Source: Escherichia phage vB_EcoM_CRJP21
Strand: one strand, 5' to 3'
DNA length: 64,000 nucleotides
Sequence record: OQ708376.1
In this document: in pieces, positions 14,744-19,554 of the stretch
How the letters are laid out: the number at the start of each line of letters is the position of its first letter
How positions within the stretch are numbered: position 1 is the first letter of the stretch
Position numbers and translations under genes: made by a program
Notes under the pieces: generated by a model
What the model was told of the DNA's origin: nothing
The model's database searches: none
Seen by the model: the letters and a program-made list of their open reading frames with translations, nothing else

Positions 14744-14796
14744 AACTATACAATTGTATACTCTAAATAATATCATCAACTATAGGAGATATTATT

Positions 14797-16142: not shown

Positions 16143-16415
16143 ATGAAAACAAAATTATTTCCACAACAAATAATGATTGAACTGTGCGAACATCAGTCTG
16201 GTGAAGTTGTTACAATCAGTGGTGATACGTATTCCATCATTTTAAATGAACAACAATTTGATCATACAAACCATACGAATGAACTGTATAATCTTATGTT
16301 TATGGACGATAAGAGTGAAAAATACTATCATTGTACATATGAACGATGTATAGATACAACACCATTTTGTAATGAAATGGTTGGTGTTAAATGTTATGAA
16401 TGTGAAGTGTTATGA
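16143..16415 (+). CDS. small Cys-rich protein, tandem paralog 1
   Basis: MKTK...ELCEH...YYHCTYER...C..C shared with next ORF. Confidence 0.55.
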   Translation: MKTKLFPQQIMIELCEHQSGEVVTISGDTYSIILNEQQFDHTNHTNELYNLMFMDDKSEKYYHCTYERCIDTTPFCNEMVGVKCYECEVL

Positions 16416-16435
16416 AGTTTTTTAGGTAAAAATAT

Positions 16436-16792
16436 ATGAAAACAAAAATCTTTCTACCACAAACCATGATGGAACTGTGTGAACATGATGCAGGGGATGT
16501 TGTCACTATTAGTGGTTCCTGGAATGAGAGTACTGAAGACTTTATGCCAGATGAGGTATATTCTGTTGTTTTAAATGAACAGTACAATACAAGCCGTTGG
16601 AATGCACAGTACAATCTAGTTTTTCTTGACAATAACAATGAAAAGTACTATCATTGTACGTATGAACGAGGTCTGACAGAACGTAACTACACAACTCCTT
16701 TCTGTGATGAAATGGATGGTGTAAAGTGCTATGAAGTTTATGTTCGTCAGGTTCCAGTTGTTACTTACAAAACCGAGTGGGATTATCTGTAA
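16436..16792 (+). CDS. small Cys-rich protein, tandem paralog 2
   Basis: same N-terminus and Cys pattern as 16143-16415. Confidence 0.55.
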   Translation: MKTKIFLPQTMMELCEHDAGDVVTISGSWNESTEDFMPDEVYSVVLNEQYNTSRWNAQYNLVFLDNNNEKYYHCTYERGLTERNYTTPFCDEMDGVKCYEVYVRQVPVVTYKTEWDYL

Positions 16793-17190
16793 TGCTTAAA
16801 GATTTAGATTTTTCAAATTTAGAGATCATCAGTGCAGTGAAGAATATTACTGATATGGATGATGAAAAAGGTGTAATGGTAACTATCACTTTCGTAAAGG
16901 AAGAGGATAGCTATAAGCATCTTACTGGAATTGAAGAACTAATTCATAAAACCAATCTTGAGAATGATGGTAAACTCATCAAGCTTCAGGCTTCATATAC
17001 GCAAAAAACGTCAAATTTTATAGACCTAAATAATGTAGTCAAGGTGGTATACAATCATCCTGATCACACATATAGGAACACGACAAGAAATGAAAATGTT
17101 GCTAACGATTCGAATATTATCGAAGATGTTGAATTCATAAACACAATTTTTGATCGTTGTTCTAAGGATTTAAAAAAAGTATACATGTAA
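16792..17190 (+). CDS. hypothetical protein
   Basis: TAATG stop-start overlap with upstream gene. Confidence 0.5.
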   Translation: MLKDLDFSNLEIISAVKNITDMDDEKGVMVTITFVKEEDSYKHLTGIEELIHKTNLENDGKLIKLQASYTQKTSNFIDLNNVVKVVYNHPDHTYRNTTRNENVANDSNIIEDVEFINTIFDRCSKDLKKVYM

Positions 17191-17210
17191 TGGGACATTA
17201 TATGTTCCAA

Positions 17211-17219
17211 TGATATAAT
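17211..17219 (+). promoter_or_regulatory. extended -10 promoter candidate
   Basis: TGaTATAAT at head of the ORF-poor region. Confidence 0.4.
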
Positions 17220-17227
17220 GTATATAG

Positions 17228-17716
17228 AAAATGACAACGGACATTGAAAAATGGACACTGAGAACCTACTTCTCTTGAAAATGTAAAGGATAGATGAGCT
17301 TTACCGTTGTAGCGAACAGCAGAAGAAACCTGTTAGAGTACTGGCATTTAAACAAACACGATGTAAGACCACGAATCACGGCGACACGGCTGTATAAAGA
17401 ACTCCGATAAGCATACAGAGAGTTCCTAGATAGATGTATAAGGTTCGCACCTTACCAGATTTGCTAAGGGAGTTTAAGAATAGCGGACGCAATTTTACAA
17501 GAAAGTTGCGTCCAAAATTTGAGAACAGGTACTACTTTGATCGAATAGAGTTAGTACTGAGTGCTGTTGATGAAAAGACCAGCGACCGTTGCATATGACT
17601 GCGATAGAGAGAAACCGAGCAACCCGCTTTCGCTCTCTAAATTTTGGTACAAGAAAGATCCGTCCAAAATTTGAGAAATTCGCAATTCGATAATATCCGA
17701 TGCCATCATCGTCAAG
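17228..17716 (+). ncRNA. candidate structured RNA and/or micro-ORF locus
   Basis: about 0.5 kb without any ORF of 60 codons or more, locally more G+C-rich, two 29-bp direct repeats each in a hairpin, ends at an intrinsic terminator. Confidence 0.3.
17497..17677 (+). repeat. two 29-bp direct repeats (27/29 identical) 152 bp apart
   Basis: acaagaaagttgcgtccaaaatttgagaa at 17497-17525 and acaagaaagatccgtccaaaatttgagaa at 17649-17677. Confidence 0.8.
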
Positions 17717-17740
17717 AGAGACTTAATTGTCTCTTTTTTA
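17717..17740 (+). terminator. intrinsic terminator
   Basis: agagac-ttaatt-gtctct plus 5 T. Confidence 0.6.
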
Positions 17741-17878
17741 TTATCTTCATTCCCCTGCGGGGGATGTAATAGTCCTCAACAAATCCCGTCAAGTTTTTAA
17801 AGTACATTATCATTTTCAGAAGGAACTAGTTTACGAAGTAAACGCAGTGACTTCTTGAGTTACGAGAGAACGAAGTGA

Positions 17879-18307
17879 ATGAGTAACACAACGAAAATAT
17901 CCGATAAATCTGAATTAACACAAATGTTATTCAAAGAATATTTTGAGTTCCAGATAAAAGACGAACATCAATTACCACAGCAATATTTGAAAAGAATTAA
18001 AGATCCGTCAGTAATTACTAAAGAAACTAATTTTTATAATAGTATTTTAGATTTCGTTAAATCAGTTCATACAACAAGACCTATTGTAGTTTTGTTTTTT
18101 GATAAATCTATTCCTTTAGTAGTTCCTGAAAATGTATTTTTTATCTCAGAAACTGATTTAAATAATCAAAGTACTGTAAGTAGATTAAGAAATTGCTTAC
18201 TTGTAGTATGTGATTCTTCTTTGTATATTAATAGAATACTATGGGATAGAAGTAAACGCAATACAGTTTCGGAAATGAATCCTGAAATTACCTTTATTAT
18301 TAACTAA
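17879..18307 (+). CDS. hypothetical protein
   Basis: 142-aa ORF. Confidence 0.5.
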   Translation: MSNTTKISDKSELTQMLFKEYFEFQIKDEHQLPQQYLKRIKDPSVITKETNFYNSILDFVKSVHTTRPIVVLFFDKSIPLVVPENVFFISETDLNNQSTVSRLRNCLLVVCDSSLYINRILWDRSKRNTVSEMNPEITFIIN

Positions 18308-18339
18308 ATAATAAGAGAATAACTCTAAGGAGAGATATT

Positions 18340-18780
18340 ATGGAAGATATTAATGATTTACGACACGTAATGGACTTTATCGGAAGTACTGAAGAAGATA
18401 ATTCATATGATGAAGTACTATTAACTTTTATTGAAAATAGTTTGTTTTTGAGTTCTGCTGCACATAACTGGCACTTACAATGTCATTTTTATACAAAGCA
18501 TTTACAATTAGATGAACTATATAAAGAATTACCAGAATATGTAGACGCATTTGTTGAAGGTATCATGAATAATCGTGGTGCTTTACAAGTTGGGACTGGT
18601 AATAGTTATCGTTTTACACCAATTGAAGATTGTGTACCAATTCTTGAAGAATATGTTGAGCAATGCAGAGCAATTCATGATATGCTTGAAGAATCGGGTG
18701 ATTACGGCAGTGTAAACACATTAGAAGATATTATGAGTTTTGTTGAAGGCGTACTTTACAAACTTAAAGTTTTACAATAA
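18340..18780 (+). CDS. Dps/ferritin-like protein (tentative)
   Basis: AHNWHLQCHFYTKHLQLDELYKEL ... FVEGIMNNRG resembles the Dps helix A/B signature. Confidence 0.35.
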   Translation: MEDINDLRHVMDFIGSTEEDNSYDEVLLTFIENSLFLSSAAHNWHLQCHFYTKHLQLDELYKELPEYVDAFVEGIMNNRGALQVGTGNSYRFTPIEDCVPILEEYVEQCRAIHDMLEESGDYGSVNTLEDIMSFVEGVLYKLKVLQ

Positions 18781-18787
18781 ACTATAT

Positions 18788-18817
18788 GGAGAGTCGTTAT
18801 GACTCTCCTTTTCTTTT
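18788..18817 (+). terminator. intrinsic terminator
   Basis: ggagagtc-gttat-gactctcc plus ttttctttt. Confidence 0.7.
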
Positions 18818-18827
18818 GGAGAAAATA

Positions 18828-19181
18828 ATGAGCGATTACCGAGTTACAACAGGTCTGATGGCACGATTAGTTGAAGCTGTACCTGAAGATGATTATGAAG
18901 CTATTTCAGATCGTCTATTTGACGCAGATACTAATCTCCATATTACATATGATGGTACACTTGTCTTCAGTACTGATCTTGATGTTCCTGCGTATGAATT
19001 TGAGATTTCTTTTGGTAACAACTTAACCCCTGAAGAATTCGCTAGAAAATGTGAGCGTGAAGGGCTGTGCATTGACGTTAGTTCAGTTCAGCCATATACA
19101 TCTCTGTGGTGTGATAATGCTGATAGCCCAATGTCAATGACATCTTTACAGGATTTTGTAAATGCAAATCAAAAAGATTAA
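18828..19181 (+). CDS. hypothetical protein
   Basis: ATG at 18828 after ggag; track ORF start at 18786 lies inside the terminator. Confidence 0.5.
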   Translation: MSDYRVTTGLMARLVEAVPEDDYEAISDRLFDADTNLHITYDGTLVFSTDLDVPAYEFEISFGNNLTPEEFARKCEREGLCIDVSSVQPYTSLWCDNADSPMSMTSLQDFVNANQKD

Positions 19182-19554
19182 ATTCCACCAGCATTGTTCT
19201 ATACATGAATGTGATGATTGTGGTATACAAATGAGTGACATTTATACTGTTTCATGTAAAGGTTTCAAATTCTCTCACGGTGAACCTGCTTATTGTTATG
19301 GTACAGAAGAAGGTGATATCGAAGTAGTACTGAAAGAATTGTTCCAGTACTTGCAAAGTGTAGGTCATGATGTTACAATACCCACATATTATGAAGATGA
19401 TTATGATGCACATGTAGAAGAAAATACATATTATAATCAATTCGTTTATGGTAATGGTTTTATCACATACCTACATGAGAATGGTATTGAGGTAAAAACT
19501 AAGTACACCAGTGATGATTATGATGATGATAATTCTATGGAGATTGAAGATTGA
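19162..19554 (+). CDS. hypothetical acidic protein (start uncertain)
   Basis: ORF with Cys pairs near N-terminus and acidic C-terminus. Confidence 0.4.
   Translation: MQIKKIKFHQHCSIHECDDCGIQMSDIYTVSCKGFKFSHGEPAYCYGTEEGDIEVVLKELFQYLQSVGHDVTIPTYYEDDYDAHVEENTYYNQFVYGNGFITYLHENGIEVKTKYTSDDYDDDNSMEIED

Follow-up and report, generated by a model that had tools for sequence, protein, structure and literature searches.

In a 64,000-nucleotide stretch of DNA from Escherichia phage vB_EcoM_CRJP21 (sequence record OQ708376.1; hereafter the window), an open reading frame (ORF) on the + strand, with its ATG at 18340 and its TAA at 18778–18780, encodes a protein of 146 amino acids of the DUF5856/T4 RI.-1 family. 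We propose, with a probability of about 0.6, that this protein is a late-made mini-ferritin of the Dps type, which would oxidise iron at sites shared between subunits and so limit damage. An initial annotation, made by eye from the sequence, had placed a possible Dps/ferritin-like protein in an early phage operon at this position. The two peptides on which it was based, AHNWHLQCHFYTKHLQLDELYKEL (residues 41–64, nt 18460–18531) and FVEGIMNNRGALQVGTG (residues 71–87, nt 18550–18600), both lie inside the ORF. By sequence, the window falls into the group of the Asteriusvirus-type jumbo coliphages PBECO4, 121Q, slurp01 and phAPEC6, with 97.5% nucleotide identity over 4 kb, and 21 deposited genomes of this type carry the protein at 99.3% amino-acid identity. 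The gene is a nearly identical copy of one that has already been sequenced, and its value lies in the interpretation rather than in new sequence.

The relationship to Dps can be traced from single sequence to profile to predicted structure. Searches with the protein by itself gave weak matches, nearly all of them to Dps (2pyb, E=3e-4; 1jig, E=6e-3). When a profile of 56 homologues was run against all Protein Data Bank (PDB) sequences, 2d5k was found at E=7.5e-7, 1jig at 1.9e-4 and 1qgh at 6.4e-4, and every match at E≤0.013 was a Dps. The resemblance to the helix A/B signature of Dps, which had first been noticed by eye, thus goes beyond chance. The ferritin-like fold suggested in the initial annotation is also predicted by AlphaFold, as a confident four-helix bundle for which the top fold matches in Foldseek are Dps and other ferritin-like proteins. 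At the level of sequence, these results support homology between the window protein and Dps.

The residues proposed to bind iron are at the same time the most conserved ones of the family. In an alignment of its three lineages (18–56% identity to the query), H45, H54, D69, E73 and Y140 are the only invariant residues besides the start Met. Among the 56 diverse homologues, which reach down to 23% identity, H45, H54, Y61, D69 and E73 show no variation, and 51 members have D58. A HMMER alignment to the Listeria innocua Dps places H45 on H31, H54 on H43, D58 on D47, D69 on D58 and E73 on E62, Listeria residues that we take to make up the inter-subunit ferroxidase centre of Dps; a PDB entry among the structure matches, titled '...Dps H31G-H43G mutant', is consistent with a ferroxidase role of those sites. 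Judged by alignment, the Dps-type ferroxidase ligand set is intact in the DUF5856 family, and the di-iron ligands expected of a ferritin-like protein have their counterparts here. Towards the C-terminus, position 129 is D or E in 56/56 homologues and position 130 in 50/56, while Y140 is found in 54/56. E129-D130 align to the 'DD' of the Borrelia burgdorferi protein NapA, and the counterpart region of Dps lines the ferritin-like three-fold pore. H42 was considered as the first Dps ligand, having the identical 12-residue spacing and being invariant in the jumbo-phage clade, yet was rejected because 20/56 members have W at this position, H45 is invariant and the profile puts H45 on Listeria H31. 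An intrasubunit di-iron site of the ferritin/bacterioferritin type was excluded, as helices B and D contain no conserved ExxH and helix C has no invariant acidic or His residue.

H54 and D69 are 15 residues apart on one helix, and given the architecture of Dps a complete site would therefore arise only across a two-fold dimer; conservation of both ligand halves would make sense only with subunits arranged antiparallel across helix B. We hypothesize that two subunits pair in this way, as in Dps, and that each di-iron ferroxidase site, of which a dimer would have two, is formed by H45 and H54 (with D58) from one subunit and by D69 and E73 from its partner. At the predicted sites, Fe(II) would be oxidised with H2O2 or O2, and the iron would be retained, probably in a Dps-like multimeric shell. 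Free Fe(II) and peroxide, the ingredients of Fenton chemistry, would in this way be removed around the phage DNA, with less hydroxyl-radical damage as a result. Such protection may operate during the late part of the long infection cycle, in the particle or on it, or in both settings.

Membership of the window protein in the DUF5856 family (PF19174) is indicated by a Pfam score of 98.7 bits, against a cutoff of 34.6 bits, over profile positions 1–94 of 94, and by a match to phrog_858 (E=5.1e-35). T4 RI.-1 aligns with it at 22% identity over 104 residues (pairwise BLASTP, E=1e-7), and the T2, VMC02, Aeh1, LIMEstone1 and Sajous1 proteins are all above the PF19174 threshold. A word-indexed search returned 120 relatives, an exhaustive hidden Markov model search of 1.84 billion cluster representatives returned 751 at E≤1e-3, and tblastn with two distant members returned 1,075 and 1,511 phage records. 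Three lineages can be distinguished, namely the RaK2-like jumbo phages, the Ackermannviridae (CBA120 orf108, LIMEstone1 ORF078, Menlow gp112) and the T-even phages with other Straboviridae. The Straboviridae copy is gene rI.-1 (alias mobD.6), directly downstream of the antiholin gene rI and located in T4 at NC_000866 58819–59205. By sequence comparison, T4 RI.-1, CBA120 orf108 and RaK2 gp015 are one family. Longer DUF5856 proteins of ~210–390 amino acids make up a large metagenomic subfamily (P0067–P0105, P0138, P0148, P0171), in which the domain is N-terminal and followed by an acidic, unannotated extension and in which Trp takes the place of His at position 42; in a few very long forms (620 and 832 amino acids) the domain is internal. 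The fusion partners in these longer proteins (216–832 amino acids) have no informative Pfam or PHROG assignment and give no guilt-by-fusion clue.

The gene is a compact, self-contained late transcription unit with a strong ribosome-binding site, since it has a late promoter and a terminator of its own (Table 1). Of the 5,220 7-mers of comparable abundance in the window, TAAATAA (8/22 occurrences) and then CTAAATA (6/14) have the strongest tendency to lie 20–50 nt upstream of start codons. Elsewhere in the window, the genes preceded by TAAATA code for tail proteins (two tail tube proteins and a tail fibre of 2,129 amino acids), a head-tail adaptor, two virion structural proteins and an Rz-like spanin. 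The motif is found 22–49 nt upstream of late or structural starts, for instance at 14763, 18304, 28644, 30408, 35341, 36121, 39052 and 41683 on the + strand and at 59945 and 51199 on the − strand, and the TAAATA(A) core is probably the late promoter of the Asteriusvirus-type phage group. For phages CBB and GAP32, ATAAATA has been derived independently as the late consensus, and a gp55-like sigma factor was found (PMC5259590). At 30–45 nt before the homologous genes, the core is kept in RaK2, CBB, Munch, EJP2, A4, LIMEstone1, CBA120, Menlow, Sajous1 and Aeh1; in the first five of these it is retained although the flanks have diverged, and the annotation of LIMEstone1 has a putative late promoter at this site. 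An equivalent hairpin and T-run follow the homologues in RaK2, CBB, Munch (as an annotated terminator), EJP2, A4, T2 and VMC02. In the Ackermannviridae (4/4 examined), the core is in the loop of a perfect CCCCC-TAAATAC-AGGGGG hairpin that precedes a T-run (L006 2955–2985; L008, L004, L010), and the Dps-like gene thus appears to have its promoter superimposed on the terminator of the gene before it. The canonical T4 late promoter TATAAATA was rejected as the signal, with 2 copies in the window against ~11 expected, and a sigma-70 promoter scan around the gene, with 30 matches against 26.3 expected in shuffled sequence, was uninformative on timing. The assignment to an early operon in the initial annotation finds no support, in view of the late-type core at −36, the gene's own terminator and the occurrence of homologues in purified virions.

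The product has been recovered with purified virions of close relatives. All five virion preparations were CsCl-purified, and the protein was traced through locus tags, since the phAPEC6 and CBB papers do not discuss it and their texts make no mention of ferritin or Dps. In the structural proteome of phAPEC6, gp306c (16.90 kDa, 99.3% identical to the window ORF) was detected with 6 unique peptides and 65.8% coverage, the values for the major head protein and the tail sheath being 74.9% and 68.0%, respectively (PMC7247149). The CBB homologue, CBB_169, was found with 3 peptides (26.3% coverage) in virions from a 3-h CsCl step gradient (PMC5259590). The record of LIMEstone1 ORF078 has the note 'confirmed structural protein', and the record of phage A4 annotates its own copy as 'structural protein'. 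Sajous1 gp217 has the same sequence as CBA120 orf108 (100% identity) and a DUF5856 score of 100.3 bits; it was represented by 10 spectra and gave a Phyre2 match to 'Ferritin' at 96.7% confidence (PMC10892097). In the T4-like Jiaodavirus phages VMC03 and VMC04, gp108 and gp100 had 26 and 27 peptide-spectrum matches, respectively, similar to baseplate wedge subunits (PMC13119998).

Several points weigh against the proposal of an iron-oxidising mini-ferritin. The fifth ligand, D58, varies (D, E, Q or G) in the three-lineage alignment. The match to the Pfam Ferritin profile PF00210, by which the initial annotation had suggested that its idea be checked, has E=0.0023 and 18.3 bits and falls below the gathering score of 24.5 bits, and the Foldseek E-values are only ~0.02. 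The model has no BC helix, an element which in Dps adds to the two-fold interface, and a dimer or dodecamer may therefore differ from that of Dps or not form. The only genetics on the family, those of T4 RI.-1, concern the timing of lysis inhibition and do not connect the protein with iron, and no iron-binding, ferroxidase or oligomer data on any DUF5856 protein were found in the literature searched. As to the particle, SSB, a RecA-like protein, topoisomerase II, thymidylate synthase and PhoH were listed for the phAPEC6 virion as well (PMC7247149), so that carry-over of abundant late proteins is possible, and gp015 is not among the structural proteins in the main text of the RaK2 paper.

The last two points would fit a cytoplasmic Dps-like cage that is abundant late and co-purifies with virions, through polyethylene glycol precipitation or sticking, having the same chemistry in another location. 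The Sajous1 authors likewise caution that proteins with low counts may be debris (PMC10892097), and a monocistronic unit with a strong ribosome-binding site and a terminator suggests high expression. However, detection of the protein extends over five preparations, three laboratories and three phage lineages, with a coverage in phAPEC6 that is comparable to those of sheath and head protein and with spectrum counts in VMC03/04 equal to those of the baseplate wedge, and a free cage of ~200 kDa should not reach the phage band in the 3-h gradient used for CBB; we regard co-purification as possible but doubtful. At the other extreme, the DUF5856/RI.-1 proteins could be true cargo of the myovirus particle, packaged with the DNA as Dps-like iron-oxidising cages or dimers, which on the present evidence is unlikely. 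If they were, this cargo would be a viral counterpart of ferritin-loaded encapsulins, the packed genome would be shielded from Fenton damage outside the cell or the protein delivered together with it, T4 would have carried an unrecognised ferritin for decades, and the mild lysis-inhibition phenotype would reflect anti-oxidant protection of long-lived infected cells. About equally improbable is a purely architectural use of the ferritin-like bundle in the virion, as a head-internal, decoration or tail accessory protein, in which the conserved His, Asp and Glu residues bind a structural metal or form an interface and neither ferroxidase activity nor iron storage is involved. Virion recovery would agree with such a role, but invariance of the four catalytic ligands and almost nothing else at 18–30% identity argues for selection on a metal site rather than on a packing surface, and the two acidic residues with which helix D begins, aligned to the pore region of Dps, are kept as well. 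In the 'Ferrojan horse' mechanism, proposed for the homologue that CBA120 and Sajous1 share from its presence in virions and the Phyre2 ferritin match, iron carried by the virion on this protein would exploit host siderophore or iron-uptake receptors at adsorption. Plating was unchanged on tonB, feoB and tonB feoB Salmonella mutants (PMC10892097), nothing places the protein in the tail, and we consider this mechanism extremely unlikely for the window protein.

A role as a lysis-inhibition accessory, modulating RIII, RI or the holin by protein-protein contact, is suggested by the homologous T4 RI.-1, which is located in the rI operon and the over-expression of which makes lysis inhibition slightly longer, acts in synergy with RIII and relieves RIII toxicity (PMC2962797). 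However, the RaK2 authors, who noted the similarity of gp015 to Aeh1 RI.-1, doubted such a role because RaK2 has no T, RI, RI.1 or RIII, and these proteins are not recognisable in RaK2-like phages. Neither of the two papers recognised the ferritin-like nature of the protein. The window gene is outside any rI operon, its neighbours being unrelated small ORFs (DUF7325 and others without a Pfam match), and in the Ackermannviridae the DUF5856 gene is likewise not beside rI. The T4 effects are mild, derive from over-expression and could be indirect, through anti-oxidant protection; we speculate that they would fit a protein that protects long-lived infected cells and postpones their collapse, and consider a direct lysis function very unlikely. 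The labels attached to the family in databases range from 'starvation-inducible' regulator or DNA-binding protein in many GenBank and RefSeq records and in PHROG 858 to 'ferritin-like protein' or 'DpsA', as used by several submitters. The sole support for a starvation-inducible DNA-binding protein or transcriptional regulator is that such labels were carried over from the name 'DNA-binding protein from starved cells', and they look like name transfer rather than functional prediction. To our knowledge, Dps itself is not a transcription factor. The window protein has a pI of 4.3 with 28 acidic (D+E) and 8 basic (K+R) residues, 9 acidic and 1 basic residue falling within residues 1–25; its sequence has no Lys-rich or basic tail, and a Pfam scan found no helix-turn-helix or other DNA-binding domain. 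The charge and the acidic N-terminus make DNA binding, which the initial annotation had listed among the possible functions, unlikely, and a regulator can be considered highly improbable.

In a 2021 survey, Dps-like enzymes of phages were described as earlier seen only in seven Lactobacillus phages, to which some gut phages were added. The family considered here, which is divergent, compact and of the Dps type and has an intact ferroxidase ligand set, occurs in more than 1,500 deposited genomes of myoviruses, among them T4, the Vi01/CBA120 group and the RaK2-like jumbo phages. The sequence, the catalogue entry (DUF5856) and the Dps-like idea are already known, but in the literature searched the family has gone unnoticed as Dps-like apart from scattered annotations and the Phyre2 match in one paper. 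What is new is the synthesis, that is, a single family which has the Dps ligands in a shortened bundle without BC helix, a conserved late promoter and a recurrent presence in virion proteomes. If the chemistry were confirmed, control of iron and peroxide would have to be counted among the conserved late or virion functions of large lytic phages, T4 RI.-1 would gain a testable biochemical handle and a widespread misannotation would be corrected.

Table 1. Features of the Dps-like gene and its surrounding signals, in positions of the window
Feature	Position	Strand	Remarks
Late-type promoter core CTAAATAA	18304..18311	+	36 nt upstream of the ATG; overlaps the stop codon of the upstream ORF
Ribosome-binding site AAGGAG	18327..18332	+	7 nt before the ATG; read from the sequence
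Coding sequence	18340..18780	+	146 aa, 16.9 kDa, pI 4.3; mini-Dps of the DUF5856 / PHROG 858 / T4 RI.-1 family (proposed)
Acidic N-terminal extension, residues 1–20	18340..18399	+	RaK2-like jumbo-phage clade only; low-confidence short helix 7–15
End of helix A and first half of helix B, ligand codons	18472..18558	+	H45 18472–18474; H54 18499–18501; D58 18511–18513; D69 18544–18546; E73 18556–18558
B-C loop, residues 80–94	18577..18621	+	15 residues; no BC helix predicted (DSSP on the model: none between 79 and 95)
Helix D segment, E129-D130 and C-terminal LYKLK motif (family-wide)	18724..18774	+	Aligns with 'DDIMS...HLW' of B. burgdorferi NapA
Intrinsic terminator GGAGAGTC-GTTAT-GACTCTCC then TTTTCTTTTG	18788..18818	+	8 nt after the stop codon; strong; from terminator scan

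Outside the ligand region, some features are particular to certain lineages. The predicted short helix of the N-terminal extension has a pLDDT (the confidence score of the AlphaFold model) of 51–53, and in the three-lineage alignment the extension is missing from the T-even and Ackermannviridae members. In the jumbo-phage clade, G80, Y90 and F92 of the B-C loop are invariant.

The surroundings of the gene provided further observations. Compared with phage 121Q, two segments are replaced, 16155–16614 (459 bp against 165 bp) and 18829–19152 (323 bp against 604 bp), and the block between them, including the Dps-like gene, is 93.7% identical to 121Q against 98.3–99.5% in the flanks. The replaced segments, the second of which begins right after the terminator of the gene, thus mark mosaic boundaries. 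A mechanically called ORF at 18786–19181 (+) is of doubtful coding status, with its start inside the terminator hairpin of the Dps-like gene, no Pfam match and a location in one of the segments replaced relative to 121Q. Further upstream, the ORF at 16777–17190 (+) is a full-length DUF7325 protein (186.9 bits) with a 121Q counterpart, gene 515, that is annotated 'structural protein'; it is possibly another uncharacterised virion protein adjoining the locus. The region 17192–17745 (+) is part of a ~680 bp gap without a convincing ORF, upstream of the gene at 17879. Its features are a sigma-70-like promoter (17192–17219) in which the −10 element is extended, a terminator-like hairpin (17714–17737), a GC content of 0.39–0.42 against ~0.31 nearby, a predicted RNA fold with z=−3.84 (0/100 shuffles as stable) and a 30-nt direct repeat (17496–17525 and 17648–17677, 93% identical and 152 nt apart). 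A search of 16500–19500 against Rfam gave no match, and we regard this region as a candidate phage non-coding RNA.

Among known systems, the Dps proteins of L. innocua (1QGH) and S. aureus (2D5K) and Dlp-2 of B. anthracis (1JIG) are the closest to the window protein. They have in common with it a four-helix bundle of a similar size class, the ligand set of helices A and B (His, His, Asp / Asp, Glu) aligned position for position and, in helix D, two acidic residues at the start and a conserved aromatic one close to the end. In contrast to these proteins, the window protein is below the PF00210 threshold, its A-B connection is 3 residues shorter and its 15-residue B-C loop has no predicted helix. 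Also, the first His is followed by Trp in Dps but by Leu in the window protein; within the 56-homologue set, a Trp at position 44 is found in the jumbo-phage clade only. The N-terminus of the window protein is acidic, whereas that of Dps is Lys-rich; a basic tail for DNA binding is present in E. coli-type Dps and is not universal. A further difference is that the family belongs to lytic myoviruses, in which it is placed under a late promoter and recovered in virions. The 24-meric ferritins and bacterioferritins are more distant, as the conserved ExxH of helices B and D, the helix-C ligand and the E helix have no equivalent in the window protein.

T4 RI.-1 (MobD.6) has the same invariant H, H, D, E and Y and the C-terminal YKL motif. 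However, T-even copies are 128 amino acids long, have no acidic N-terminal extension and are translationally coupled to rI, while the copy in the window stands by itself as a late unit, in a group of phages reported to be without T, RI and RIII. The canonical Dps proteins of the Lactobacillus plantarum myoviruses and the 'Gratiaviridae' gut phages are likewise phage members of the ferritin superfamily and have been proposed to limit damage by iron and reactive oxygen species while infection is under way. In contrast to the DUF5856 proteins, they are ordinary, sequence-recognisable Dps proteins, described as rare (seven Lactobacillus phages and a few dozen gut phages) and encoded among replication genes, whereas DUF5856 is separate, divergent, far more widespread (more than 1,500 phage records) and virion-associated. 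Encapsulin nanocompartments, in which a ferritin-like cargo (Flp or EncFtn) is enclosed in an HK97-fold shell, offer a conceptual parallel, in that a ferritin-superfamily protein occurs together with an HK97-fold capsid; some of the Dps-like domains in BFVD occur as fusions with prohead proteases. In contrast to encapsulin cargo, the window protein has no evident cargo-loading peptide or flexible C-terminal linker, although no targeted search was made, and its C-terminus coincides with the end of helix D. Also, its gene is not beside a capsid gene, and the adjacent small ORFs have no capsid annotation.

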